Positions 220-20,472 of a DNA stretch of 24,068 nt are shown here, piece after piece. This DNA is from a virus. Its lineage: Duplodnaviria > Heunggongvirae > Uroviricota > Caudoviricetes. Made by a program: the position numbers and the translations under genes. Within the stretch, counting starts at the first letter, position 1. Each line of letters opens with the position of its first letter. The notes beneath the pieces are model-generated. The model saw only the letters and a list, made by a program, of their open reading frames with translations. It did no database searches and was not told the origin of the DNA. The DNA is taken from positions 1 through 24,068 of IMG/VR virus record IMGVR_UViG_2778261544_000011, one strand, 5' to 3'.

Positions 220-259
220 AATTTTATTTTTTGAAAAATGAGGGGCATAAGCCCCTCAT
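220..259 (-). terminator. Rho-independent terminator downstream of the major head gene
   Basis: Hairpin ATGAGGGGC-ATAA-GCCCCTCAT at 238-259; on the minus strand it is followed by TTTTTCAAAAAATAAAAT, immediately after the CDS stop at 265. Confidence 0.6.
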
Positions 260-264
260 AGTTA

Positions 265-1161
265 TCAGATGAATGGTGAAACAATAATTTCCACGCGCTT
301 ATAATTAGGATTGTCTTCTCCGTTATCCAGATACTGACGTAACAGCAGTTTTTCCGCTGCGGCTCTTAACGATACGGGGACTACAATAACAGTAGGCACG
401 ATTCCCAATGGTTCACCGCTACTTCCCTTAACGGATAACATCCCGTCGTACACTTCATTAAATGTGGTTTCATTCAGTGTATCCCATGATGCCGCTGCGC
501 ATTGCCACATTGCATATCCAACGTTAAGACGCCCATCAACACCAAACAGAAAACGATTATTCAGAAACACATCAGTAGCGCCGGAATCAGTAACAGAAGT
601 TACAGCCATTGGACGACGAACTTGATAAATAAAAGGTTTCAATCCTTGACTACCATCAAATAAGTACCATAACGGCGTTGCACCTGCGTTTTTTTCTGGA
701 TTGCTTCCATAGAGGTTTGAATAAACGCCTTCACCATTAGGATGGTCAGTAGCAAAGAAGTTGTGCCCGTCAATTCCTTCTGATAAGTGCCCTTTCTTCA
801 TAGCTTCAAACAGTAACTTATCAGGGAATGCAGCTGCTTTGCGCCCGTACTGTTCAAAAACCATTGAATACTTACCATAATCATTATCTTCAAAATCCTC
901 ACGTTTAATTTGAATGCTGCTTTCAAACGTTTTATTTTTCAGAAAATAATCACGGGTTGACAGTGATTTTAACTGTCGGTCGTTTAACCACTCTTTGATT
1001 TCCGGGAAATCTTCGAGGAAGCCATAAGCACTAACTGCCGATGAAGACGTTACTTCTGAAGCAATCGTTGGATGTACAGGATTGTAGGCTTTTTTTCCTG
1101 ATTCAAACCTGGCATTAAAAGCGATAGTAGCATCAGCAATTACACAATTAATATCTTTCAT
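265..1161 (-). CDS. Mu-like prophage major head subunit (gpT-like)
   Basis: 298-aa ORF; sequence recalled as resembling Mu-like gpT major capsid proteins; lies directly downstream of an I-like protease gene with a small overlap, the Mu head-gene order. Confidence 0.6.
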   Translation of the reverse strand: MKDINCVIADATIAFNARFESGKKAYNPVHPTIASEVTSSSAVSAYGFLEDFPEIKEWLNDRQLKSLSTRDYFLKNKTFESSIQIKREDFEDNDYGKYSMVFEQYGRKAAAFPDKLLFEAMKKGHLSEGIDGHNFFATDHPNGEGVYSNLYGSNPEKNAGATPLWYLFDGSQGLKPFIYQVRRPMAVTSVTDSGATDVFLNNRFLFGVDGRLNVGYAMWQCAAASWDTLNETTFNEVYDGMLSVKGSSGEPLGIVPTVIVVPVSLRAAAEKLLLRQYLDNGEDNPNYKRVEIIVSPFI

Positions 1162-1972
1162 TTTCTTTTCCTAAAGCTATCAAATAGTCTTCTTCGCTTA
1201 CACCTGTAATGCGGCAAACAGCCAGTTGCGATTCAGTAAGCGTTCTCGGGGGTTCTTTACCTTTTACACTTACAGCCCTAGCAAAGTGTAAAAAATTACT
1301 CGTCGATTTTTCCTGCATATCAGCAAACTTCCTGAATGCATTTTCTCCAACACTTGAACACATGGACAGAAGAATATTCCGCTGGGCCGGACAGAAAACG
1401 GCTTTTTCGATATATTCATTTACAATCTGACTATGTTGTTCAGCTTGTCTTTTATTTAACGCTGTCAGCACTTCTTCAAGTGAATTAATCTCCTCCATGT
1501 TAAGTGCCAGTGCGATTTTGCTAATCGTTTGCTGAGTATTTAGTGCCGTTAGTTTTAGATTTGGTTTATTCGTTAACGCCACGCTAACGAGTTCCAGTAT
1601 TTCACCATCCTGAGAATGACGGAAAGCCGGTGAAAGGTATCTGTATTCACGGGATGTGATGAAATCTATTGCTCGTGGGGTCCATTCAACTTTTCCCCAT
1701 ACAGAACCATCATTACGAACAGCAACGTCATTAATCCATCCGGCGGCAGGAGCCTCGCCACCTTTGGGGGCAGTAACTTCTGTAGAATGTTCATAATCAA
1801 CAACCAGCGACATCCCCCGACCAGAAAACGCCTGTTTAATGCTCTGCGGATCCTTGAGCGTCCAGTGCCTTCCGTCACGCCCTTTAATTTCTGGTCCAGC
1901 TGGTAACAACTCAACCCATTCAGGAGGAGTCTTATCACCCGACAAATCAGTACATAAAGCAATTACGTTCAT
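1148..1972 (-). CDS. Mu-like prophage protein I-like (head maturation protease/scaffold family)
   Basis: ORF 1148-2005; the codon at 2005 is TTG, so the preferred start is the ATG at 1972 preceded by AGAGGAA; resemblance to Mu-like protease I family from memory; overlaps the gpT-like gene. Confidence 0.5.
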   Translation of the reverse strand: MNVIALCTDLSGDKTPPEWVELLPAGPEIKGRDGRHWTLKDPQSIKQAFSGRGMSLVVDYEHSTEVTAPKGGEAPAAGWINDVAVRNDGSVWGKVEWTPRAIDFITSREYRYLSPAFRHSQDGEILELVSVALTNKPNLKLTALNTQQTISKIALALNMEEINSLEEVLTALNKRQAEQHSQIVNEYIEKAVFCPAQRNILLSMCSSVGENAFRKFADMQEKSTSNFLHFARAVSVKGKEPPRTLTESQLAVCRITGVSEEDYLIALGKENERY

Positions 1973-1997
1973 TAGTTCCTCTGTTATTGAGTTAACC

Positions 1998-2038
1998 CCC
2001 TTCAAAACCCCTTCAAAAACGCCGTAGCGCCTTCAAAG
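1998..2038. repeat. Three direct copies of CC(C)TTCAAA(A) across the start region of the I-like gene
   Basis: cccttcaaaa (1998-2007), cccttcaaaaa (2008-2018), gccttcaaag (2029-2038) read directly from sequence. Confidence 0.5.
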
Positions 2039-2200
2039 ATATGAAGGTAAGGTGTTTGCCCATCATGAGCCAAAACACAGCCGTAATGCGTTTGAGGCAA
2101 TTCACATTTGTTAGGTGCGAAATACCCCTGATTCTATATTCATGCATTAAGTGTTTTGCTGTCAGCATCATTAGCAAATGTTCATTGCTTATCATTAACG

Positions 2201-2929
2201 TTAATTTAAGCCATAATCGCCAATGAGCGCCCTTACATGTTTTATTGTTGTGTATATCGATTTACCAGACTCTCCATACTTAATAGCCAGTTCAGCAGGA
2301 GACATAACATAACTATCTGCATACATATCTGCTTTTTTTATTATTCTACTCAGTGAGTCGGCCTTAGGTAAATAAAACTGGATTCCGCCTACAACTTCCA
2401 GAAATGCTTTTGTTGCAATAAATGTTTTTGTCGTGCCATTTACTTCTTCTTGTGGGTCTACTCCAGTTTTTTTTAATGCCGCCTCAATAGCCCCCATAAT
2501 CATAGTCACACTTTCTGGAAGAATCTTTGTTTCTTTTCTCAATAAAGCGATAATAGCAGTTTTGCGGATATGCTTAATCGGACCACCACTAAAAAAATCC
2601 GGTTCAAATTTCATTGCGTCAAGATAGAATGTTTGTTTTCCGCAAATAGACATAAATTCATTAAAGAGAGCGGTGCCTGCGACATTACAAAAAACATCAA
2701 TTTCGCACTCGCCACTCTGTTCATGTTTCACTGCGTGAAATTGTTTTTCAATCAATTTCACATGCTCACTGACTTCATTATAATTACATGCATATCCCAT
2801 TTTACTGATATAAGACATAACATCACAGATATCACGAGAAAAGCATGAAGAAACAATGAATTTATTTATCGCTGTAATATCATTGTGTGGCGGCGTTAAC
2901 ATGAGATTTTTAAAGGTTTGTTTAGCCAT
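2201..2929 (-). CDS. Hypothetical protein, AT-rich orphan gene (243 aa from the ATG at 2929)
   Basis: ORF 2201-3058; internal ATG at 2929 is preceded by GAGAAG; visibly AT-rich relative to flanking phage genes; no family recognised. Confidence 0.5.
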   Translation of the reverse strand: MAKQTFKNLMLTPPHNDITAINKFIVSSCFSRDICDVMSYISKMGYACNYNEVSEHVKLIEKQFHAVKHEQSGECEIDVFCNVAGTALFNEFMSICGKQTFYLDAMKFEPDFFSGGPIKHIRKTAIIALLRKETKILPESVTMIMGAIEAALKKTGVDPQEEVNGTTKTFIATKAFLEVVGGIQFYLPKADSLSRIIKKADMYADSYVMSPAELAIKYGESGKSIYTTIKHVRALIGDYGLN

Positions 2930-3007
2930 TATCTTCTCGCTTAAGCTTTTGCATATACCTGTGTACATTTGAGCGCGATGCGCGGTAGCCAATGCTTGCA
3001 GCAAACT

Positions 3008-3047
3008 TAACGTTATCCGCAATGTTACGATAACGATTATTGCGGAT
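3008..3047. promoter_or_regulatory. Nested inverted repeats (TATCCGCAAT...ATTGCGGATA and CGTTATC...GATAACG), operator-like, upstream of the orphan gene
   Basis: Perfect 10-bp inverted repeat separated by about 15 bp, roughly 80-120 bp upstream of the 2929 start codon; not followed by a T-tract on either strand. Confidence 0.3.
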
Positions 3048-3189
3048 ATGGGAATCAAAAATAAGTTTATCCCCGATTGTGATAAAACATAATTTTTTCA
3101 AAAAAGAACCATCTCCGTTTGCTCCGGATGCTGTGAGATTACATGGGAATTTTGGGGAAGATAGATTTACCGTTTTCCATGAAGTATGC

Positions 3190-3194
3190 ACGGA
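3190..3194. repeat. 5-bp target site duplication ACGGA (left copy) flanking IS2
   Basis: acgga at 3190-3194 immediately outside the IS2 terminus at 3195; identical copy at 4526-4530. Confidence 0.85.
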
Positions 3195-3205
3195 TGGATT
3201 TGCCC

Positions 3206-4111
3206 CTATATTTCCAGACACCTGTTATCACTTAACCCATTACTGGCCTGCTGCCGTAGATATTCCCGTGGCGAGCGATAACCCAGTGCACTATGCGGAT
3301 GCCATTCGTTATAATGCTCGAACGCCTCTGCAAGGTTCTTTGCTGCCGTTAACCCGTCTGGTTTAGGCATGACACTGATGTAGTCACGCTTTATCGTTTT
3401 CACGAAGCTCTCTGCCATGCCGTTACTCTCCGGACTCCGCACCGCCGTGTTCTTCGGTTCAAGCCCCAACATCCGGGCAAACTGCCGTGTTTCATTAGCC
3501 CGGTAGCATGAACCATTATCCGTCAGCCACTCTACTGGAGACGCCGGAAGCTCGTTGCCGAAGCGGCGTTCCACCGCTCCCAGCATGACGTCCTGTACTG
3601 TTTCACTGTTGAAGCCGCCCGTAGTGACCGCCCAGTGCAGTGCCTCACGGTCACAGCAGTCCAGCGCGAACGTGACTCGCAGTTTTTCTCCGTTATCACA
3701 GCGGAACTCGAACCCGTCAGAGCACCATCGCTGATTACTTTCTTTCACAGCCACTCTGCCGGTATGTGCCCGTTTCGATGGCGGTACAGCGAGTTTTCGC
3801 TCAAGCAACAGCGCATTCTGGCGCATGATCCGGTAAATACGTTTGGCATTGATCGCAGGCATACCATCAAGTTCGGCCTGTCTGCGAAGCAGCGCCCATA
3901 CCCGACGATAACCATATGTGGGCAGCTCTCCGATAACATGGTGTATACGGAGAAGCACATCCGTATCATCTGAGTGACGGCTGCGGCGACCATCTTTCCA
4001 GTCATCGGTTCGTCTGAGAATGACGTGCAACTGCGCACGCGACACCCGGAGACAACGGCTGACTAAGCTTACTCCCCATCCCCGGGCAATAAGGGCGCGT
4101 GCGCTATCCAC
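3206..4111 (-). CDS. insD: IS2 transposase OrfB (InsD)
   Basis: 301-aa ORF recognised as IS2 InsD from memory; DDE integrase-type sequence; overlaps the upstream insC frame as expected for IS3-family frameshifting. Confidence 0.9.
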
Positions 4112-4434
4112 TTTTTTGCACGCCCATATTCCACGGCTTCTTTAAGGAGTTCATTTTCCATCGTTTTTTTGCCGAGCAGGCGCTGGAGTTCTTTAATCTG
4201 CTTCATGGCAGCAGCAAGTTCAGAGGCAGGAACGACCTGTTCTCCTGCGGCCACAGCAGTAAGACTTCCCTCCTGGTATTGCTTGCGCCAGAGAAATAAC
4301 TGGCTGGCTGCCACACCGTGTTGCCGGGCTACAAGGGAGACCGTCATTCCCGGTTCAAAACTCTGCTGAACAATAGCGATCTTTTCCTGTGTAGTACGCC
4401 GTCTGCGTTTCTCCGGTCCTAAGACATCAATCAT
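4069..4434 (-). CDS. insC: IS2 transposase OrfA (InsC), helix-turn-helix protein
   Basis: ORF 4069-4479; start placed at [12 protein letters not shown] (ATG at 4434), giving 121 aa as in IS2 InsC. Confidence 0.85.
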
Positions 4435-4525
4435 CTGCTCTCCAATGACTAGTCTAAAAACTAGTATTAAGACTATCACTTATTTAAGTGATATTGGTTG
4501 TCTGGAGATTCAGGGGGCCAGTCTA

Positions 4526-4530
4526 ACGGA
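4526..4530. repeat. 5-bp target site duplication ACGGA (right copy) flanking IS2
   Basis: acgga at 4526-4530 immediately outside the IS2 terminus at 4525. Confidence 0.85.
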
Positions 4531-4552
4531 TATGTGCAGCAAGTGGTAGGCA

Positions 4553-4577
4553 ATAAAAAAGCCGCACGGGGCGGCTT
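4553..4577 (-). terminator. Rho-independent terminator directly downstream of the gp27-like gene
   Basis: Minus-strand reading: AGCCGC-cccgt-GCGGC followed by TTTTTTATT, starting about 8 nt after the stop codon at 4586. Confidence 0.5.
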
Positions 4578-4585
4578 TGGGATAG

Positions 4586-4948
4586 TTAATGTTTTTCGAG
4601 AAACTCTAACACTCGTTCAAGTCTGGTCCCTAATCTGTCTATCTTTGATTCAAGTTTATCAAGTCTCCTGTGCAGTTCGGCATGCTTATAACGGCGAGAC
4701 ACTTCTCCATGTTTCCTGGCTACCGAAACAGCATTGATTAAACTAATCGCATATCTGTTCAATCCGGTTTTGGATATGACCAGTTCTGAACACCCGGCTA
4801 TTACTATATCCTGATTTATGATATTTAAAATTTCAGCCTGAGAATACTTACGCGAGATAAGCATTTTATCAAGCTTCCTTTTTGTCTTTTCAGGCAGTAA
4901 TTCAACTTTTGAAAGTCTGCCTCGTTTGTTTTTTGTTTGATTTTCCAC
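4586..4948 (-). CDS. Mu gp27-like (DUF3486-type) protein, putative small terminase/DNA-binding packaging protein
   Basis: 120-aa ORF; N-terminal [18 protein letters not shown]... pattern resembles Mu-like gp27 family proteins (recalled, unverified). Confidence 0.4.
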
Positions 4949-4972
4949 TTACACCCTCACAAAAAAACATGA

Positions 4973-5254
4973 TCACTCATCACTTTGTTGGTCACAATAT
5001 TCTACTAACCGAGACATGCATTCAATAAGAGCAGGTGCTGATTGTAAGAACCCTGCCAATCGGGATATTTCCTCACCAGAATAACCACATCCCCCTCGCA
5101 ACTGATTTTCTTCCAGAAACCTACCAACAAAAGTAATCCCATTCAGTAAACTTTCTCTATGCCAGTCAGCATCAACACGTAAACCCCAGCGGCTTTCTTT
5201 GTCAGGCATGCTATTCGCGACTGCTTTCATTGACTCAAGCAAATGATTACGCAT
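4973..5254 (-). CDS. Hypothetical small protein (93 aa)
   Basis: ORF 4973-5335; ATG at 5254 preceded by strong AAGGAGG; start overlaps the stop of the upstream gene (ATGCGTAA). Confidence 0.45.
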   Translation of the reverse strand: MRNHLLESMKAVANSMPDKESRWGLRVDADWHRESLLNGITFVGRFLEENQLRGGCGYSGEEISRLAGFLQSAPALIECMSRLVEYCDQQSDE

Positions 5255-5444
5255 GGCGCACCTCCTTAGCCGGGACGCGGCCAGCAAACAGCAACACAAA
5301 ATCACGCGCCAGCATACGGCGGGCGGTTGTTTCATCGGGTGCGTTGACGGATTCGCGGTGTGGGCGGTCGTTCAGGTCGGAGCGGCGAACGACCAGAAAG
5401 TGAAAGGTAAATTCAGGGTGTAACGGGGTTGGGGTCGTAGCCAT
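5247..5444 (-). CDS. Hypothetical small protein (65 aa)
   Basis: ORF 5247-5636 (first codon GTG); ATG at 5444 preceded by strong AAGGAGG; upstream part of the ORF lacks an SD. Confidence 0.4.
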   Translation of the reverse strand: MATTPTPLHPEFTFHFLVVRRSDLNDRPHRESVNAPDETTARRMLARDFVLLFAGRVPAKEVRHA

Positions 5445-5990
5445 TCTGGCAGCCTCCTTGTACTGGTTTAAGGAGTCACCGCCTGAGTTGCTACGCTCAT
5501 AAATGGCGGTGACGCTGGCGGGGGTAGCAATACCGGCGTACAAGGAAACCGGCCAGCCTTTCGGCTGCCCCACCAGCGCCACCATAGATACAGTGCGGGC
5601 CTTGCCGCTGGGTATGGTTGCGCGATGGCATGACACAAAAAAAGACGCTGGGCGCGTCTGTGTCGCCTTGTACTGATTAAACGGGTTGCTACGCCCGATA
5701 CTCGATTCTGCCGAGTACTTTTATAAAATATCAACAACAGAATGAGTTGGCAAGTGTCTGTACGCATCAGCTATACAATGCATAAAAATACAACACACAA
5801 AGCTCATTACACATGAATTATCACACCAATTGGTTAATATCAATAAGCGACAATCATTGTATATGATACTGATTTTTATCATGTTTTACACATAAACTAG
5901 ACATTAACTGAGTTAATTTCATTGTTAATTGATATGATCCACGATTAAGAATGGCTACTTTTCGCCAAGGAATTTGCTACCCCTTACCAA

Positions 5991-6372
5991 TTATCTTGAA
6001 TAAGATAGCTTAACATACACAAATTATTTTCTTTTACCCAATACGCCACACCACCAGAGATGCGAAAAATTCACTTTAAAATCAATTTGATACACAAAAA
6101 GCAAAAACGAACACACAAAGGAAAAGATTTGTTTTTCCAGAAAAGACAAAAGAAAGCACTCCTGGATGTTCCAAGCGGCAAAGTCAAGGGCTATAGCGAA
6201 TTTGAAGCGCTTTAAAACATTCAAAACACACATCACCATTATCTTGATTGTTTTTTCGATTTTGGATAGTTGCGCTATTTGTGACCACGTTTATCTTGAA
6301 TAGTGTTATCCGTAAGTTGTTGATACCCGGCTATTCCCGTCTTTACTAATCTCTTCCCGCTTATCTTGAATA
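5991..6372. repeat. Four direct copies of TTATCTTGA(A/T)T(A) in an AT-rich intergenic region
   Basis: Copies at 5991-6002, 6239-6250 (ttatcttgattg), 6291-6302 and 6361-6372; the last abuts the stop of the GT-A-like gene. Confidence 0.6.
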
Positions 6373-6374
6373 AA

Positions 6375-7208
6375 TTACCTAGTCATATGAAGGATTTTTA
6401 CTGCAGCGTTGTTCCAGGTGACCTGATGGTGAATGCGTTTATGGCTGGCACCCATCAGTGAGATTTTTACGCACGACGGCGCATACATGACGGAATAAAA
6501 ACTTTTAACGTAGGTTCCGGAATCCAGATACAGCTCGGTCATTCCGCCGCTGTTTTTCTGCGTCTGTTTCTGCCCTAACTGGACAGCACCGATCGTCATA
6601 AACAATTCACCACGGCGACCGAGATTCGTGTACGTATTCACATCCTCGTTAATGCGCCCCATGAATGAGAACGGTCGATCAACCGAACAGATAAAGCTGT
6701 TCATTGCCTTGCGTTTCACCCATGAAGCATGGCCGCCATTGTCACCAAGAAAATCCCCGCCCTGCGACATAGCGATGGAAAGCGCAGGAATTGATTCGTA
6801 ATACGCCAGCATTTCAGAAAGGATCGCATCCAGTTTCCTTATCGGAAAATAGGCCTGGTCATAGTTGCGATCCACCCGAAACTGAAACTCGTGATAATCA
6901 TCATCGAGCTGAATGAAGTATTTACACCCGACCTTTTTTGCCAGGTCGAAACAGGCATTACGGGCGTAAAAAATTGAGCGACGATCACCGAAATTATCGG
7001 CTTCGTCAAAACGACTGGCGATTTCGGCTTTGGAAAACACCAGCACCTGTTCACCAAATTCTGCTATGTACTGATGCCGGGTTTTATCTTCATCATCAAC
7101 GACGATAAAAATTTTCCCTGTATAGCCAGCACGACGCAAAGTCCGGTAAGTCAGAACTTTGTCCGGTCGCCCATGAGTCAGAATAAAGGCGCAAAAATCA
7201 TCACGCAT
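6375..7208 (-). CDS. Nucleotide-diphospho-sugar transferase (GT-A)-like fold protein, function unknown
   Basis: ORF 6375-7226; ATG at 7208 preceded by GGGGAGGAGG; N-terminal FILTHGRPD...IFIVVDDED and later IQLDDDY resemble GT-A/NTP-transferase DxD-type motifs; no C-terminal transmembrane segment; start abuts the ParB-like stop (ATGCGTGA). Confidence 0.55.
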   Translation of the reverse strand: MRDDFCAFILTHGRPDKVLTYRTLRRAGYTGKIFIVVDDEDKTRHQYIAEFGEQVLVFSKAEIASRFDEADNFGDRRSIFYARNACFDLAKKVGCKYFIQLDDDYHEFQFRVDRNYDQAYFPIRKLDAILSEMLAYYESIPALSIAMSQGGDFLGDNGGHASWVKRKAMNSFICSVDRPFSFMGRINEDVNTYTNLGRRGELFMTIGAVQLGQKQTQKNSGGMTELYLDSGTYVKSFYSVMYAPSCVKISLMGASHKRIHHQVTWNNAAVKILHMTR

Positions 7209-7989
7209 ATTCCTCCTCCCCGCCATGCATGATCTCCACCATGCACTGCGTCATCCGGACAAAACCATTTTCAATAGCCTGCTGATAATCAATGATCACC
7301 AGTGCCGACTCTTCGAAAAGCGCCTGAACTTCAGCGGGCGCATGAGCGTAATAGTCCGCAATTCTGCTGAAATTAAATACTGTGTGGCGTTCTGCCGCAC
7401 ACAGGAGGAATTTTTCGATATCAGGCTCAAGGGACGCCGAACGTATCCGGCTGACCAGCTCCTGAGTTTTCGTATCGTCGTACAGTTCGCCGATATCCGG
7501 TTTATCGCCCGACGGCTCATAAACAGGCGTATCAATTTTCGTCGTGTACGGCTCCTCCTCATTTCCTGTACCTGGCAAAACATCCGTCAACAGTTCATCA
7601 ATTTCTGTCGGGCTGAATCCTGTCAGGGAGATATCAAAATCAGCATTGATTAGGTCCGACAGCTCCATCCGTAACAGATCTTCATCCCAGCCAGCATTCA
7701 TCGGCAGGCGATTATCTGCCAGGCGGTACGCCTTTTTCTGCTCATCCGTCAGGCCAGACAGAACAATGACCGGAACAGAATCCATTTTGAGCATTTCAGC
7801 CGCCATAACACGACCGTGACCTGCAATAATTTCGCCCTTTTCATCAATCAGCACCGGATTAGTCCAGCCGAATTGCTTAATGCTTTCTACCAGTTGTGCC
7901 ACCTGCTCAGGGCTGTGTGTCCTGGCATTGTGTGCATACGGAGACAGTTCTTGTAACGGGCGATAGACGATTTTCAATTTCTCGCTCAT
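7201..7989 (-). CDS. ParB-like nuclease domain (ParB/Srx fold) protein
   Basis: 262-aa ORF; N-terminal region with ParB N-domain-like motifs (…LSPYAHNART…GHGRVMAA…); ATG at 7989 preceded by GCGAGG. Confidence 0.7.
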   Translation of the reverse strand: MSEKLKIVYRPLQELSPYAHNARTHSPEQVAQLVESIKQFGWTNPVLIDEKGEIIAGHGRVMAAEMLKMDSVPVIVLSGLTDEQKKAYRLADNRLPMNAGWDEDLLRMELSDLINADFDISLTGFSPTEIDELLTDVLPGTGNEEEPYTTKIDTPVYEPSGDKPDIGELYDDTKTQELVSRIRSASLEPDIEKFLLCAAERHTVFNFSRIADYYAHAPAEVQALFEESALVIIDYQQAIENGFVRMTQCMVEIMHGGEEEYA

Positions 7990-9056: not shown

Positions 9057-9602
9057 CTACACGCCCACGCGTTCTTTCATCCAGCCATAGACAAACGACT
9101 CGTTGGCCTCGCGTTTCTCTGCCAGCTCCAGATAGCGGTCACCCTGCGTGCAATTCAGCGCCTTCAGCATCACCAGTTCGCCATCCCTGCCACGATTTTT
9201 CAGATATGCCCGTAGCGCATTAAGAGTACGCGGCCCGATGCGTCCATCAGCATCCATATCCGGATACAGTTTCCCGCGCAGGTTGAAAACGTTAAGCCAG
9301 CGTTGAAGCATTTTTGACGCCACGGTTGGCCCCATGTTCACGCCCGTATCACACAACTCTGCGGCAATATCAGGGGATAACGCTGCCACCTGGTCAAAAC
9401 GTGGTCCGAACCAGTAATCCGCCTCGAGTATTTCCAGCGCCTGACCGCGTGTAAGGTCGCGCATATCGCCGCGATATCCGTGTGCGCGGGCGACTTTTTC
9501 CGTAACACCCCATTTTGTCGGCCCGCCTTTATCGTCCGGATGATTGACGTAGCCACCCTCTTTTCCGAGGATTTCATCAAAAATGACGTCCTTCGATTTC
9601 AT
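9057..9602 (-). CDS. Endolysin, glycoside hydrolase family 108-like N-terminal domain plus peptidoglycan-binding domain
   Basis: 181-aa ORF with FDEILGKEGGYVNHPDDKGGPTKWGVT (GH108-type EGGY motif) and a C-terminal DGRIGPRTLNAL peptidoglycan-binding-like segment. Confidence 0.8.
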   Translation of the reverse strand: MKSKDVIFDEILGKEGGYVNHPDDKGGPTKWGVTEKVARAHGYRGDMRDLTRGQALEILEADYWFGPRFDQVAALSPDIAAELCDTGVNMGPTVASKMLQRWLNVFNLRGKLYPDMDADGRIGPRTLNALRAYLKNRGRDGELVMLKALNCTQGDRYLELAEKREANESFVYGWMKERVGV

Positions 9603-9603
9603 C

Positions 9604-9882
9604 TCAGTGCCTCAACAATGGAAAGATTCTTGTGACGTTCCCGCGTGCGCGTATCACCAGCACGCAGAACAGCAGGTTAAAAAACACTTCCAGCCAGCCC
9701 GTTGCTAACGGGCGACCACACAGATAGCTGAGGGGCGCAAAGGCATACAGCAGCATCAGCAGCCAGGCCAGCCATGACATCAGCGGTTTATGTCTGGAAT
9801 CCCGGCGACGATAAAAAAAGAGCGTCAGCACGATAACCGTGCATAACGCCACATTCAGCAATCCGGGAAGGTTACTTAACAT
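9604..9882 (-). CDS. Membrane protein with about 3 predicted TM helices, holin/antiholin-like
   Basis: ORF 9604-9936; ATG at 9882 preceded by GGAGGAGG; overlaps the upstream holin-like gene stop by 11 bp; directly upstream of the endolysin. Confidence 0.5.
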   Translation of the reverse strand: MLSNLPGLLNVALCTVIVLTLFFYRRRDSRHKPLMSWLAWLLMLLYAFAPLSYLCGRPLATGWLEVFFNLLFCVLVIRARGNVTRIFPLLRH

Positions 9883-10264
9883 TGCCGCCTCCTCCACCCC
9901 GCGGGCGGGAGAACAGGCCGGACACCAGTGATGCAATATCCTGCTGGTGGATGAACGAGAGAATCTTCACCGACACCACTGACACCAGCACTGCACACAG
10001 TGCGTCGACAGGCGCACCGTCAAACCCTGTATGCTTTACCAGCCAGGATGCCAGAACCTCTGCGCCCAGCACGCCGATAATGAACGACACCAGAAAATGC
10101 GCCGCCACACGCCAGGCTGAAAGCGCCTGCGGCATCGTTGCCACAAATAACGCCCCGGCGAACGCACCAAACACAATCCCGAAATCCGTTCCGGTAAACA
10201 GCCCGAATACCGTCGCCCCGCCGAGCGCCACAGCCGTGCCGGAACCGGATAAGGGTTCAGACAT
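9872..10264 (-). CDS. Putative holin-like membrane protein (130 aa)
   Basis: ORF 9872-10336; ATG at 10264 preceded by AGGAGA; Gly/Ala-rich hydrophobic helices; first gene of the lysis cassette. Confidence 0.5.
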   Translation of the reverse strand: MSEPLSGSGTAVALGGATVFGLFTGTDFGIVFGAFAGALFVATMPQALSAWRVAAHFLVSFIIGVLGAEVLASWLVKHTGFDGAPVDALCAVLVSVVSVKILSFIHQQDIASLVSGLFSRPRGGGGGNVK

Positions 10265-10583
10265 ACTTTTTTCTCCTGTAAATAAAAAAGGGCCACCAGC
10301 GGCCCGTAAAAAACACCCCGTCAAAAGCACCGGCATCCGCAGATGCCCTTTGCGTGGCGTTATTTGATGCGCACCAGATGTGGCGCAAAGAAATGAAATA
10401 AGACTTATCGGAAATTATGGTTAATTTGAGGATTTAAACCACTTCTGAAGCTTAGTAGTATGAACATGTCCCCGGAAGGGGGCCAATACTTATTATTCTT
10501 CATGGACTTTGTCCCGCGGTCTTAATCCGACGACCGCGCTACTTTTCACCCTCTCGCAAATTGCTATCCAAAGGACGTTGTCC

Positions 10584-11539: not shown

Positions 11540-12076
11540 TTAAGCATAATCGAACGCTTCTCTCATAGGTGAATACAAAATGAACTCAGCAACACGCAAC
11601 CACTGCTCAACACGACGTCGGCATGTAATCAACGCCCACTCTGGGTACTGTTCGTTTAATAACTCTGCCATCCTTCTCTTACTCATCCCTCGCCCCACAT
11701 AACGCTGACTCAGGACATTTAGTAGTCCTGGATGATCCGCCAGAACTTCACCTATAACACTATCAATTTTTAGTGCCTCTGCATCAGTGCAGTGAGTTAA
11801 CCAGCTTTTTTGCTTTCCTTCGATCATCTCACGCAAAAATGCTTCCAACTCTGGTTTATCAATTCCCGCTTTTTTCAATCTGCGCAGGGCTTCATTGATG
11901 GCTGTTTTTGTCATTTTTTGGGATGCCAGCAACTGGTTAAACATATTCCCTGACCTGCCGCCGCCAATATACGACCAGCGCCCCCACATACGTAGTTTTC
12001 CCTGAATCCAGACACTTTCCAGCGTGGTGAGACGAAGGTGTTCTCCGCTTTTTCCTGTATTCGTTGGGTAAATCAT
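11540..12076 (-). CDS. Putative late-gene antiterminator (Q-like by position), 178 aa
   Basis: ORF 11540-12196; ATG at 12076 overlaps the stop of the upstream DUF1364-like gene (ATGA); sits between the nin-like genes and the PR'-like/tRNA/lysis region; no confident family match. Confidence 0.45.
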   Translation of the reverse strand: MIYPTNTGKSGEHLRLTTLESVWIQGKLRMWGRWSYIGGGRSGNMFNQLLASQKMTKTAINEALRRLKKAGIDKPELEAFLREMIEGKQKSWLTHCTDAEALKIDSVIGEVLADHPGLLNVLSQRYVGRGMSKRRMAELLNEQYPEWALITCRRRVEQWLRVAEFILYSPMREAFDYA

Positions 12077-12363
12077 AAATATCCCTCCTTTCTCCAGATT
12101 TCTTGTGTGCGAAAAACACCTTCTGCATGCATCAGGCGTAATTCTTCTTTGGTGTAATCGCTGGTTTTTACCCGCCCGTCGATTAAATCGTGGCACGAGC
12201 TACAGGCAATCGCTGCCTGCATATCGTGTGGCTTTATCGCTGTTCCGCACGTTCCCGCCAGTCGGTAATGCGCCAGCACAGACGTTTCCGGATCGTGATT
12301 GCAGTAGCCAGGAATTCTGACGGTGCACATCTGCCCCCGCGCCGCTTTACGTAAATCCACCAT
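12073..12363 (-). CDS. DUF1364 (YbcO-like) phage protein, Cys-rich putative nuclease
   Basis: 96-aa ORF resembling DLP12 YbcO-family proteins (recalled); conserved Cys/His pattern; start overlaps the upstream gene stop (TAATG). Confidence 0.65.
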   Translation of the reverse strand: MVDLRKAARGQMCTVRIPGYCNHDPETSVLAHYRLAGTCGTAIKPHDMQAAIACSSCHDLIDGRVKTSDYTKEELRLMHAEGVFRTQEIWRKEGYL

Positions 12364-13974: not shown

Positions 13975-14907
13975 ATGCACAGCGTTAATTTCTATTCATT
14001 CCGCGTCTTGACCCATAAAGGCAGTCGAGCCAGCAAAAAACTTAATGAATTGGGTTTAAGTAATAAAAAAACGGCATATGAACTTTTTGTTGATTATTTT
14101 ACTCTATATAAAAACACCCCCATCGAGTTTGGCGTATCCAAAACTAAAATATCTCTGGAACAACACGCTAAACTTCACTTTGATAACTCAAAAAAAATTA
14201 TATATGGTTATGTAAAAGTTGGGAAATATGGAGAAAGCAGTGAAATAAAAGATGTAAAACTCAAAAAAATCCACTATAGGACAACTGCTTATGATGTAAC
14301 ACTCAAAGAACGTTATATTTTAATATACCTACCAGACGCCCTTGAAGAAGGAATTATTGCATTCCACTCTTGCGATAATATTTCTGCTCGAGGTGTCCTT
14401 TCTGATTCTATCACTGAATATCTAAAAAACAAATTTCAACTCGAAGCAAGAATCAATCCATTACATCATAAGAAAATCCCTCAATATATTCTCAATTCCG
14501 AATTAAAACAAATTAAGGCTCAAGGATATAAAGCACCAAAAGACATTGCTGATTCCTTTGGTCAAAACAAAACAAACATCAAGACAGACTTAATAATAAA
14601 AGCAAACGATGGCATGTTCGGAAGTTTCAGAGATTTAAGAAACAAGAATATAGGAAACATCATTGAGATTATTGAAGATAAATGTGATGCAATAAAAGTA
14701 AGCTTACAACTCGGCAGTCGGACTGTCGTTTTCAATTATGATACCATACTAAAAAAAGGAATTTCCGCAGAGTTAGATGATAATGATCTAAAAATCGACC
14801 CATTAACAGGCATACCTGATCTAACAGCACTTCATGACACGATAAAAAACCTTTCTAATGATATATTGTTAGAACTGCATAGCGGAAACAAAGGGGTGAT
14901 TATATGA
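13975..14907 (+). CDS. Hypothetical soluble protein (310 aa), RexA-like candidate, first gene of a two-gene cassette
   Basis: AT-rich ORF opposite in orientation to the flanking phage genes; ATG preceded by AAGGA; N-terminal NFYSFRVLTHKG weakly recalls the RexA N-terminus (unverified). Confidence 0.6.
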   Translation: MHSVNFYSFRVLTHKGSRASKKLNELGLSNKKTAYELFVDYFTLYKNTPIEFGVSKTKISLEQHAKLHFDNSKKIIYGYVKVGKYGESSEIKDVKLKKIHYRTTAYDVTLKERYILIYLPDALEEGIIAFHSCDNISARGVLSDSITEYLKNKFQLEARINPLHHKKIPQYILNSELKQIKAQGYKAPKDIADSFGQNKTNIKTDLIIKANDGMFGSFRDLRNKNIGNIIEIIEDKCDAIKVSLQLGSRTVVFNYDTILKKGISAELDDNDLKIDPLTGIPDLTALHDTIKNLSNDILLELHSGNKGVII

Positions 14908-15458
14908 ATAAAATAAATGTACTGGGTGTAATAATAAAACACTACAAAACAATGTCAGATCAGCGTGGAACAATGTTGATGAGCGACATTATCGTACATT
15001 TTATTGTTCCGTTATCTCTTTCTTTCGTTCTGTGCTGGACATACGGAATAATGAAACCGGCAATTGCTTCCGTCTTTGTTAACTTCGGGGCTATTACAAC
15101 AGCACTATTAATGAGTGCAGTAATAATGATTTATGAACAAAAACAAAAAACCATCACTAAGATATCAGACATAATTGAAGGAAACAAATCCCGAGACAAA
15201 TTGATATCATTAAACACTAACAAAACCATATATGAGCAGTTATGCCACAACGTCGCTTATGCAATATTAACTTCAATAGTATTGGTTATATTTTCAGTGA
15301 TAATATATTTCCTGCCTGACAATGCAGTGGATTTAATGAAATGGTATTTTCGCGCACCTGCATATATTGTTAGCTTTTTAGCCTATACATCCTTTTTTAT
15401 CACTGTTATAACGTTCTTAATGGTAATAAAAAGATTTAGCACAATTTTAGATAATTGA
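14904..15458 (+). CDS. Integral membrane protein with four predicted TM helices (184 aa), RexB-like candidate
   Basis: ATGA start/stop overlap with the upstream gene; AGGGGTG ahead of the ATG; four hydrophobic segments (about residues 26-48, 53-77, 117-137, 150-175). Confidence 0.6.
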   Translation: MNKINVLGVIIKHYKTMSDQRGTMLMSDIIVHFIVPLSLSFVLCWTYGIMKPAIASVFVNFGAITTALLMSAVIMIYEQKQKTITKISDIIEGNKSRDKLISLNTNKTIYEQLCHNVAYAILTSIVLVIFSVIIYFLPDNAVDLMKWYFRAPAYIVSFLAYTSFFITVITFLMVIKRFSTILDN

Positions 15459-16910: not shown

Positions 16911-17576
16911 TCAAACAAAACCAGCCGCTTTCCGGCGCTCATATTCCTGTTTCAGCAACTCAATTGGCGTTGGTCCCGACGGGCGTTCTGGTGCTGCCAG
17001 TTGCCGCCGTACGGGCGGAACGCTGAAGCCATCACCAACATGCTTTGCCCATTTCGCCAGTTGCCGTTCTGCAAGCCGTTTTAACTCCCCTTCGGTCATC
17101 TGACGCTCAATCCCCTTTGAACGCATCTCGAGGCAAATGTGATACAGCACAGGCTGAGTCCATGGGTATTTATCGCTTCCGTCGTATCGCCAGGACTCAT
17201 TGCGCCAGCGCCGGTACTCCTCCATCACGGCATCCACCGTCAGACCGAATGGATTGGCTCCGCTTTCCGAAATCAGCGCCACAAACTCAGCCAGGTCCGG
17301 AGGCCATGTTTCACCCGCCCGGCAGCGGTTCATGCACTGGCGGCAGACCTGACGGATTTGCTGCTCAGTCATCGCGCCAATCTGTGCAATCCAGAGCTTC
17401 GAAGGTGCGGCCCCGTTCTTCTGGGTCCAGCGGTTCGAATAAACCTCCCCCATGAGTTCCCACAGCTTCCACGCCGTTTCCGTCGCTGATAAATCCGTTT
17501 TCACGTTCCCACTGCTCACGTGCTGCCCGAATTTCCTGAACGGCCCGTGATGCGGTGCCGCCTGGTGCTGCTGCAT
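16911..17576 (-). CDS. Replication protein P-like (DnaB helicase loader, lambda P family)
   Basis: C-terminal ...[40 protein letters not shown]... aligns by eye with lambda P; start ambiguous (ATG 17576 with GGGGTGA SD, or internal ATGs at 17453/17372); overlaps the O-like gene. Confidence 0.65.
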
Positions 17577-18489
17577 GGCTCACCCCCTTGCTGACTGGTT
17601 TAACCTGCGCCCTGACGTGATGTACGTGACGGGCGAATTTCTGCTCCCACTGAACCTGCGTGAAAACTTTCCCCTCCGCTGCCCAGTAGTCCCGGAAGGC
17701 GGCAAGTTCAGCAGGTGTAAATTCCGGCTCCGGCAGAGCCACTCCCCACAGTGCAGCCCGCCGTCGAAAATCCGGCGACGGATGCCAGCCATCGGTCATC
17801 GGAAATTTCCCAATGGGTTCGCTCAGGCCTTCCAGGTAATCAGGTTCCGCTGCCTGCAACGGCACGCCATTTGCCTCACTGGCCGGAGCACTCTCGCGCA
17901 CGCGCGCGTTATGTGTGGGGTTTATATATCTGTTATCTGTTATCTGGATACCGCATGACAAAGCGTTAGCCTTATCCTTAGGCTTATCCTCAGGCAAAGG
18001 GATTGCCTTATCGAATGCCATCCCCAAAGCCTCAGAAACACCGTAGGACGCGGCTCTCAGCGATTCCCTGGCCTCCCATTTGAGAGGGCAATCAGGAATT
18101 AAAGCGAATGCCTTTGCCCAGGATTTAATGACATTTATCGAGTTTGGCGGATTGTGTTTCGCAGCATTCGGGAGCCAAAAAACTCTGGCTTTGATATCTG
18201 CTTTCACCATGCCAAGATTCATGGCTTCGCCTAAGGCTAAGTCAAAGGCTTCGATATCCCACCCCAACTCTTCAGCCATTGCTGCCCGCCCGGCTTTAAA
18301 TAACCCAGGAATAATCCCGGTAAATGGACTGGTCAGCAGATAAATAAACAAACTCTGTCCACTTGGAGGCAGAGGAGATAACGCCCTAAATTTGGGATCA
18401 TCCCATATCGTTATTTTTACCTTGCGATAAGGCTCATTGTTTGCCTTAGTTTTTGGCATGGGATTTGGCATGTTTTTAGCCTTAACCAT
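17365..18489 (-). CDS. Putative replication initiator/replisome organiser (O-like by position)
   Basis: ORF 17365-18543 (first codon TTG); ATG at 18489 preceded by GAGG; immediately upstream of the P-like gene; contains an iteron-like repeat array. Confidence 0.5.
17923..18012. repeat. Iteron-like direct repeats with a TTATC core inside the O-like gene (candidate origin)
   Basis: tatctgttatctgttatctgg (17928-17946) and gccttatcct-tag-gcttatcctcagg...gccttatcg (17968-18012). Confidence 0.5.
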
Positions 18490-18568
18490 AATTGCCTCAT
18501 CTGGTGTCGAACCTTCCTCCGGATATAATCTGTGATTCCCCAATCAACAGAACCAAAGGAGGTTCGAC

Positions 18569-20007: not shown

Positions 20008-20472
20008 ATGAGAAGAAAACGCGAAGAAATCGCATCGCCGGAAGCTACGCAACGTCTGCGCGCAATCTGGGATGCAAAAAAAAGAGAGCTCAAACTGACT
20101 CAGGAGCTTGCTGCCGAGCTAATGGGTTTTGAGGCGCAATCTGCGGTTAGCCATTATCTCAACGGAAAGGCTCCACTTAATACTGATGCGGCATTAAAAT
20201 TCGCTGTATTACTAAGAGTTAAGCCTGAAGAGTTGAGGCCTGATTTAGCTGATCTGATGAATTACGTCCGTTCCTCAGGAACTTATGACGAAAGTTTCGA
20301 AGGCGAAGGTTGGCGGATGGTTAACAAGCAACAAGCTGATTTACTAGATCTTTTTGATATCCTTCCCGAATCAGAAAAAGCAAAACTAATCGAAAGACTT
20401 AAAGGTCAGAATGAACTCTACAAAGAAGCATTTGAAAATATGCTGGCAGCTCAAAAACGCATGAAGAAATAG
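20008..20472 (+). CDS. racR: Prophage repressor, RacR/DicA-like HTH protein without a peptidase domain
   Basis: 154-aa ORF with an N-terminal HTH and C-terminal LLDLFDILPESEKAKLIERLKG resembling DicA-family repressors; position matches racR in a Rac-type early region; symbol by context. Confidence 0.6.
   Translation: MRRKREEIASPEATQRLRAIWDAKKRELKLTQELAAELMGFEAQSAVSHYLNGKAPLNTDAALKFAVLLRVKPEELRPDLADLMNYVRSSGTYDESFEGEGWRMVNKQQADLLDLFDILPESEKAKLIERLKGQNELYKEAFENMLAAQKRMKK

Follow-up and report, generated by a model that had tools for sequence, protein, structure and literature searches.

The stretch of DNA analysed here, referred to as the window, covers positions 1 to 24,068 (24,068 nucleotides) of the Caudoviricetes record IMGVR_UViG_2778261544_000011 in IMG/VR; its source contig is NLNV01000023.1 (GCA_002229815.1), designated locus L010. 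The genes of the window lie mostly on the minus strand and form a lambdoid prophage, to the left of which an AT-rich stretch (5768–6374, GC content 0.32–0.35) carries four direct repeats and holds neither an open reading frame (ORF) of more than 71 amino acids nor a match to a protein family. Here, we present evidence that these repeats are very probably recognition sites for a DDE transposase of the Mu family and that they form the left end of a small transposable element next to the prophage. Positions are those of the window unless stated otherwise.

The pattern TTATCTTGAWT, i.e. TTATCTTGA(A/T)T, matches the plus strand exactly at 5991–6001, 6239–6249, 6291–6301 and 6361–6371. These matches bear out the description in the initial annotation of four direct repeats in an AT-rich non-coding stretch, except that the exact motif common to the copies is 11 nt long instead of the 12 bp reported there. 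When up to one mismatch to the pattern was allowed, the window contained seven matches versus 1.55 expected, a number that none of 100 dinucleotide-preserving shuffles reached, and the 9-mer core TATCTTGA[AT] has no further occurrence in the 24-kb window beyond the four repeats. Given these match counts and the absence of the core elsewhere in the window, the four repeats are real and not due to chance. They are not equivalent: the copies at 6239, 6291 and 6361 form a conserved terminal array with spacings of 52 and 70 nt, while the fourth (5991) lies 248 nt farther inward. On the 3' side, each recognisable site continues beyond the core and reaches ~22–27 nt, with flanks that differ by position. 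A proposed link between the TTATC core of the TTATCTTGAAT repeats and the iterons inside the O-like gene was ruled out; the iterons (17959–18012) have a 12-nt period and are of the CCTTATCC / TTAGCCTTATCC type, share nothing with the repeats beyond one 5-mer, and no match to the motif with one mismatch lies within the O gene. The parts of the arm that contains the repeats are, from the terminus inward:

6361–6387, plus strand: L1, the outermost site, with the terminus; core TATCTTGAA at 6362–6370, terminus ...TTACCTAGTCATA, element end at 6387
6331–6359: block CTATTCCCGTCTTTACTAATCTCTTCCCG between L1 and L2, a candidate pac or host-factor site
6291–6312, plus strand: L2 site, in register with the L2 cores of the helper-type prophages described below and 70–71 nt from L1
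6239–6262, plus strand: L3 site, in register with helper-type L3 cores and 52 nt from L2
6201–6232: second conserved block, TTTGAAGCGCTTTAAAACATTCAAAAC, just inside L3, with conservation mostly at the 70% level in the aligned helper ends
6064–6187, plus strand: decayed start (~35 codons) of a repressor (c) gene of the type in prophage L014, with no intact ORF
5983–6017, plus strand: L1', containing the fourth repeat, a 35-nt internal duplicate (CTTACCAATTATCTTGAATAAGATAGCTTAACATA) of the terminal L1
5827–5954: remnant of a ner-c early control region with the first four repressor codons, of the type in prophage L008 (...TTGATATGATCCACGATTAA)

The right-hand border of this arm is a sharp one. 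Identity of 100% to uninterrupted Rac-type prophages ends at 6388, within a gene for a TAGT-family protein, and the TAGT ORF continues to a stop at 6375 inside the inserted DNA, with the 3' end of the gene cut off (283 amino acids in the window versus 310 in an uninterrupted Rac-type relative). In the uninterrupted relatives, TAGT is followed by one small gene and then by the terminase genes. By sequence comparison, the DNA to the left of 6388 is a separate, inserted element of the Mu family. Because Rac-type identity stops at 6388, the apparent intergenic region is a junction and not control DNA of the prophage, and its placement in the initial annotation as the region upstream of the packaging-side genes of the prophage does not hold.

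Window positions 6201–6390 are 70–79% identical to the outermost DNA of Mu-like prophages of E. coli, and the last 80 nt are 89% identical. For comparison, seven E. coli loci with left ends of such prophages (helper-type prophages) were retrieved. In all seven the order is Gam...AAA ATPase (MuB-like), Mu transposase, Ner-like helix-turn-helix protein, repressor, end and host DNA, and the host DNA differs among the loci (at three of them narI, fliH or the alanine-racemase-like yhfX is disrupted, and others are next to nrfA and cusS). Each left end has three (T/C)TATCTTGAA cores at the offsets of window positions 6361, 6291 and 6239 (spacing 70–71 and 52 nt), closes with ...TTAC(C/T)T(A/G)GTCATA and diverges from the others immediately afterwards. 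Including that of the window, which interrupts the TAGT gene, eight left ends abut unrelated DNA after GTCATA, consistent with random insertion. Based on this shared terminus followed by divergence, we conclude that the window element ends at 6387 and that the three proximal repeats are its terminal array. The likeness extends to single sites: L3 has the core TATCTTGAT, the sole copy with a T at core position 9, and its flank TGTTTTTTCGAT matches the helper L3 flank TGTTTTATCGAT. Conservation of number and spacing in related prophages, which the initial annotation had named as the check on its proposal, holds for the three terminal copies, which are kept in register, and fails for the fourth, which is absent there.

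The complete 35.2-kb prophage L014, which extends from the repressor to com/mom and is inserted in yhfX, allows both ends to be compared. In the 46 kb of this locus TATCTTGAA occurs exactly six times, with three copies at the left tip and three in inverted orientation at the right tip, where 22 nt separate two of the cores. The source contig of the window has a right end of this type, again with three inverted cores, at L010 11216–11298 (51–137 nt beyond the start of the window); identity to E. coli nifJ/ydbK begins directly after it at L010 11299. Across 20.9 kb of the source contig, the core is found only in the arms of the element, four times on the left and three times, inverted, on the right. 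The element accordingly spans L010 4775–11298, i.e. 6,524 bp, or 5,193 bp without a 1,331-bp IS2-like insertion. In phage Mu, the end sites of the transposase MuA are L1–L3 and R1–R3, a set reportedly described by Craigie et al. in 1984. In the element and in the complete prophages, too, several sites stand at each extreme terminus and are inverted between the two ends, and a gene for a MuA-like transposase and one for a MuB-like ATPase adjoin the same end array in all full-length relatives. It is because of this 3 + 3 inverted layout at the tips of complete prophages that we read the repeats as transposase sites. What stands from the initial annotation is the prediction of an array bound by protein at multiple sites; its membership in the lambdoid prophage does not hold, and a role in regulation or packaging, whether as a cos/pac site or as an activator/repressor array, does not fit three cores at the left tip matched by three inverted cores at the right tip.

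Complete Mu-like prophages with matching end sites occur in E. coli and Shigella. Among species-representative genomes, the three-site pattern was found at only four left ends, two each in representatives of E. coli and Shigella; two of these lie beside a transposase gene and two, which share one insertion, have a repressor gene that contains IS1. The searched collection has no phage record with a left end or recognition sequence of the window type. The full-length TATCTTGAA-ended prophages have the termini TATGAC...GCGCGCTTTA (TA...TA) and are flanked by 4-bp direct repeats in four of four cases, with ATTC, CAGG, TTCA and TAAG as the repeats; the prophages compared were L014 (847/36090), L006+L021, L007+L022 and L008+L023. 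The joined flanks exceed the empty yhfX site by 5 nt, and one of these nucleotides is the constant terminal A. A reading of the flanks as 5-bp duplications was rejected because one base fails in all four prophages, while a 4-bp repeat fits all four.

We considered whether the repeats could instead be a pac-type packaging array bound by the product of a gp27-like gene, which matches a small-terminase family in PHROGs and lies ~1.1 kb farther into the element. In phage Mu, the pac site is located between L1 and L2, and in the arm this interval contains the strongly conserved block at 6331–6359. This block is the best-conserved part of the arm; it is largely invariant across six aligned ends of the same type and is also kept in a sibling element with Mu-type ends despite different transposase sites. 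However, the candidate pac block differs in sequence from the repeats, and siblings keep the block yet carry entirely different repeats. Moreover, the core is present three times, inverted, at the right tip of the complete prophages and of the window element, where headful packaging from one end needs none. A packaging role for the repeats themselves is, therefore, very improbable; by analogy to Mu, the pac idea may apply to the block at 6331–6359.

The inner part of the arm holds decayed sequences at the DNA level only. Positions 6064–6187 are 64% identical to the start region of the c gene of L014, and 5827–5954 are 68% identical to L008 in an alignment of 142 positions that takes in the start codon context; in both cases, none of 300 shuffles reached the score. 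Searches by tblastn with four helper repressors were negative, and an intact repressor gene in the arm was discarded as a candidate. The fourth repeat lies in L1', which is 74% identical to the terminal 6353–6387 including the CATA ending (again reached by none of 300 shuffles), and the full-length prophages have no copy of the core at this position. L1' is located between the two remnants, the L008-type remnant on its inner side and the L014-type remnant on its outer side, neither of which is translatable. We read the arm, from these alignments, as a composite of an inner end (L1') and, joined to it, the left end of another element in a decayed state. L1' is most likely the scar of a nested or recombined left arm; possibly, it could be used as an alternative end.

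The ner-c control remnant, together with a Mor-domain protein encoded by the element, also raises the question of whether the repeats are operators for a repressor, Ner, or a Mor/C-type activator of the leftward cargo operon. Several observations argue against this idea: the only promoter-like site (5753–5725) lies outside the array; the three copies closest to the terminus are the conserved ones, and they align with prophage tips, where a promoter would not be expected; inverted cores are found again at the right end, beyond mom; and the operator-like palindromes in the control remnant (TTAACTnAGTTAA) differ in sequence from the repeats. Among the explanations considered, we regard this one as the least probable.

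Between its two ends, the window element contains the following features, listed from the left arm inward:

5753–5725, minus strand: promoter-like site (promoter scan), in the leader of the cargo operon (5502–5753)
5718–5638, minus strand: isrK-like RNA with a terminator-like hairpin (Rfam, 53.7 bits; gathering score 50)
5589–5502, minus strand: C4 antisense RNA (Rfam, 82.2 bits; gathering score 45)
5247–5585, minus strand: Ash-family ORF (Pfam Phage_ASH)
4973–5254, minus strand: orf93, 93 amino acids (gene call)
4586–4948, minus strand: short gp27-like protein, 120 amino acids (Pfam Phage_Mu_Gp27)
3196–4526, minus strand: IS2-like (IS3-family) insertion sequence, 1331 bp, between the gp27-like and Mor genes (Pfam HTH_Tnp_1, rve)
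2201–2929, minus strand: Mor-domain protein, 242 amino acids, with the Mor domain C-terminal (Pfam, PHROGs)
1148–1972, minus strand: Mu I-type head protease (Pfam, PHROGs)
265–1161, minus strand: Mu gpT major head protein (Pfam, PHROGs)
1–264: start of the right arm

The Ash-family ORF overlaps the C4 RNA and may be a spurious call. The match of the gp27-like protein to the PHROG small-terminase family is limited to the N-terminal 70 residues, and its similarity to the helper protein, which has 193 amino acids, is likewise confined to the N-terminal 70 residues of the latter. Gene calls between the element ends include no transposase, MuB-type ATPase, large terminase, portal or tail gene; because transposase and MuB-like genes are absent, the element is non-autonomous. 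Compared with the proteins of TATCTTGAA-type prophages, gpT is 43%, the protease 33%, the N-terminus of gp27 44% and the Mor domain 26% identical. With cargo only 26–44% identical to helper proteins, the element is, therefore, not a fresh deletion derivative of such a prophage.

Relatives of this cargo are found elsewhere. Window positions 234–3195 and 4526–5793 are 95% and 88–89% identical, respectively, to a 6.9-kb element in nine complete E. coli genomes, which keeps this gene order and in addition carries two small ORFs and a tape-measure-like gene; its gene content includes no transposase or integrase. These sibling elements keep the C4/isrK leader, lack the IS2-like insertion in all copies and are contiguous across the insertion point; a string resembling the TTTGAAGCGCTTTAAAACATTCAAAAC block was found farther inside the sibling element. 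The ends of the siblings are of the canonical Mu type (TGTGATGGTTCATGATAAATACGAAAAG... and TGAGGCGCTTCACAAAAAGCGCGAAAG...), with TG...CA termini. Four independent sibling insertions were found, and perfect 5-bp duplications flank four of four:

UMNF18: duplication CTGGC, LysR-family regulator gene
RIVM_C039629: duplication CACAT, next to a sugar isomerase gene
RIVM_C039629: duplication CCGGT, yiaK
IMG/VR contig: duplication TCCAG

The two copies in RIVM_C039629 have identical protein accessions, and this genome also carries a prophage with a right end nearly that of phage Mu. No full-length prophage with a left end similar to those of the Mu-type siblings was found by BLAST at the DNA level. 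The gene set, hence, recurs as a mobile unit, with siblings at no fewer than four sites with duplications and twice within one genome. A more distant member (L020, with a Mor protein 41% identical) has two TTTGATACT cores at its tip, and TTTGATACT is repeated 3 + 3 at the ends of the Yersinia phage vB_YpM_5. Like cargo is thus associated with at least three kinds of ends (TATCTTGAA, Mu-type and TTTGATACT), each matching a different Mu-like lineage; in this comparison, cargo refers to the gp27-like and Mor-domain genes, together with the protease and gpT genes only where the contig extends that far.

Two further observations concern these relatives. In the UMNF18 sibling (L009 8097–9884), the tape-measure-like gene encodes 595 amino acids, is 76% identical to the tape measure of TATCTTGAA-type prophages and is not present in the window copy; it is odd cargo for a 6.9-kb element. 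In L019 (Mor protein 92% identical; 1–60 and 430–560), the contig edge bears three repeats of CAAAAACAC, and GTGGGTGCCA is repeated three times close to a small gene on the reverse strand; this left arm may represent a fourth end or regulatory type.

Taken together, our best reading is that the window element is a natural, non-autonomous mini-Mu, and possibly a satellite. In support of the latter, it has no genes for autonomous spread and its cis sites match a helper lineage, and the cargo (gp27-like protein, Mor-type activator, protease, head protein and C4-type switch) suggests a satellite lifestyle. We propose that the transposase of a resident or infecting helper phage would bind L1–L3 (6361, 6291 and 6239) and R1–R3, pair the two ends and transpose the element in trans, as happens with laboratory mini-Mu. 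The core sequence, which is TTCAAGATA in the window, TTTGATACT in vB_YpM_5 and the MuA-type consensus in Mu, would decide which helper can move the element, making the repeats its specificity determinant. The retained operator remnant could serve as an enhancer, the C4/isrK leader would hold the cargo silent until induction, and packaging would start from the conserved block between L1 and L2; more speculatively, the gp27-like protein, the protease and gpT might redirect packaging or head assembly. Whether, beyond this locus, E. coli and its relatives harbour satellites that have no integrase or transposase, borrow the transposase of a Mu-like helper and swap their end arrays according to helper lineage, with the window representing the TTCAAGATA-type variant, is in our judgement evenly balanced on the basis of the comparisons made here.

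The ends resemble Mu attL and attR in having three sites per end in inverted orientation, a tip site L1 spaced from L2 and L3, two right-end sites separated by 22 nt, a CCGGGA...GGGA block that is conserved between L1 and L2, random insertion in host genes and, in autonomous relatives, A and B genes that adjoin the left end. They differ in that the core is TTCAAGATA and not the MuA consensus, the termini are TATGAC... and ...CTTTA/TATA and not TG...CA, and the full prophages of this end type are flanked by repeats of 4 bp. We therefore do not class this end type as a canonical Mu att, though, as judged from the DNA, it would clearly work like one. In phage vB_YpM_5 (Muvirus, MT374853), the transposase is 85% identical to that of the helper type, the termini are TATGA... 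and ...TTTTGCGCGCTTTA rather than TG...CA, and there are 3 + 3 inverted sites; in contrast to the window element, it is a complete 37-kb phage, and its TTTGATACT core is a diverged recognition sequence.

Laboratory mini-Mu needs only the L and R ends in cis, with MuA and MuB supplied in trans and an internal enhancer raising the efficiency (PMC5847225). The window arm is similar in retaining a remnant of the operator region, where the enhancer of Mu lies, while the element differs from mini-Mu in being natural and conserved, with its own head protein, protease, activator, gp27-like gene and RNA switch. The element also shares features with P4-like satellites, phage-inducible chromosomal islands (PICIs) and capsid-forming PICIs: it is small (5–7 kb), has no replication or mobility enzyme for lytic spread of its own, brings regulators and capsid-related genes, and has cis sites that match those of a helper. 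Genes for head proteins are likewise part of capsid-forming PICIs (bioRxiv 10.1101/2022.09.08.507074). Unlike these satellites, it has neither an integrase nor att-site integration, and the mobility proposed here would depend on a helper transposase, with random insertion and short duplications. The leader resembles immI of P1/P7 (C4 antisense RNA, icd) in the matches to C4 and isrK followed by Icd-like/Ash-family ORFs; it differs in heading the cargo operon of a Mu-ended element, with no ant gene identified. Our literature searches, with incomplete coverage, found no description of natural mini-Mu elements or Mu-dependent satellites, which is absence of evidence only; one match checked as a possible Mu satellite concerned a P4-like satellite and was set aside.

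Several points weigh against an element that is mobilised by a helper. A helper prophage could not be demonstrated in the source genome, and the sole hint is an assembly break: the k-mer assembly of SRR6413644 (L011, whose end corresponds to L010 11280) ends exactly with the last 31-mer that precedes 42 nt identical to helper right ends, which suggests a second copy of the same end type in the source strain. Not one of 5,426 complete E. coli genomes contained the combination of cargo and end that the window has, and this combination is known from two assemblies that apparently represent one strain; similarly, when the exact gpT and Ash proteins were looked up, the source contig and one SRA assembly of this locus were the only records returned, and no viral or metagenome contig matched a 24-mer spanning the fourth repeat. 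The window copy has no target-site duplication (its flanks are TAGT and nifJ), contains the IS2-like insertion and has two genes fewer than the siblings; it may be inactive. The end type departs from canonical Mu (TA...TA instead of TG...CA, and 4-bp instead of 5-bp repeats), and transposase action at the repeats is a prediction from sequence comparison.

The flanks of the element are also non-contiguous in E. coli, with the TAGT gene on the left and the interior of nifJ/ydbK on the right; therefore, the prophage has lost its late genes and the chromosome its DNA as far as nifJ. We infer an adjacent deletion; intramolecular replicative transposition would account for it, as would recombination between two copies, and either route implies past activity at this locus. 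Together with the IS2-like insertion, the decayed repressor remnants, the missing duplication and the rarity of the cargo-plus-end combination, this deletion could mean that the transposase sites are genuine and the element is a decaying remnant of a full Mu-like prophage, its array being a fossil. Such an origin is unlikely: a compact gene set with intact ORFs recurs at no fewer than four sites, flanked by perfect duplications, and one genome holds two copies whose proteins are identical, the cargo has diverged from helper proteins to the extent given above, the same cargo type occurs on at least three end types, and both ends of the window element are intact. It is quite possible that this particular copy is a fossil, which leaves the identity of the repeats as transposase sites unaffected.

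End repeats for a transposase are a known kind of feature, and it is the small element that is of interest. To our knowledge, all known classes of phage satellites integrate by their own recombinase. Dependence of a natural mini-Mu on a helper transposase would, if true, add a new way to parasitise a phage, and would explain small transposase-less islands with a Mu-like head protein that annotation pipelines label as prophage debris. The same cargo on three end types constitutes a ready-made natural experiment on the specificity between transposase and end. For annotation, the consequence is that an apparent intergenic control region of a lambdoid prophage is a junction at which the prophage is truncated and its late genes are lost.

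The remaining part of the window belongs to the lambdoid prophage, in which the following genes were assigned:

6388–7226 (prophage part; ORF 6375–7226), minus strand: TAGT/GREB1-like glycosyltransferase (Pfam TAGT)
7201–7989, minus strand: ParB-N protein
9057–10336: lysis genes
11540–12196: Q
16911–18543: O-like and P-like replication genes
20008–20472: cI-like repressor

The ParB-N and TAGT genes lie side by side on the minus strand (6375–7989), just upstream of the expected position of the terminase genes, and look like a DNA-modification module that is disrupted in the window. In addition, a low-GC (0.30–0.38) cassette of two genes on the plus strand (13975–15458) is located inside the lambdoid prophage and encodes proteins of 310 and 184 amino acids, the latter apparently a membrane protein. 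This gene pair had no match to the defence-system models in PADLOC, and it may be an uncharacterised moron or defence pair.

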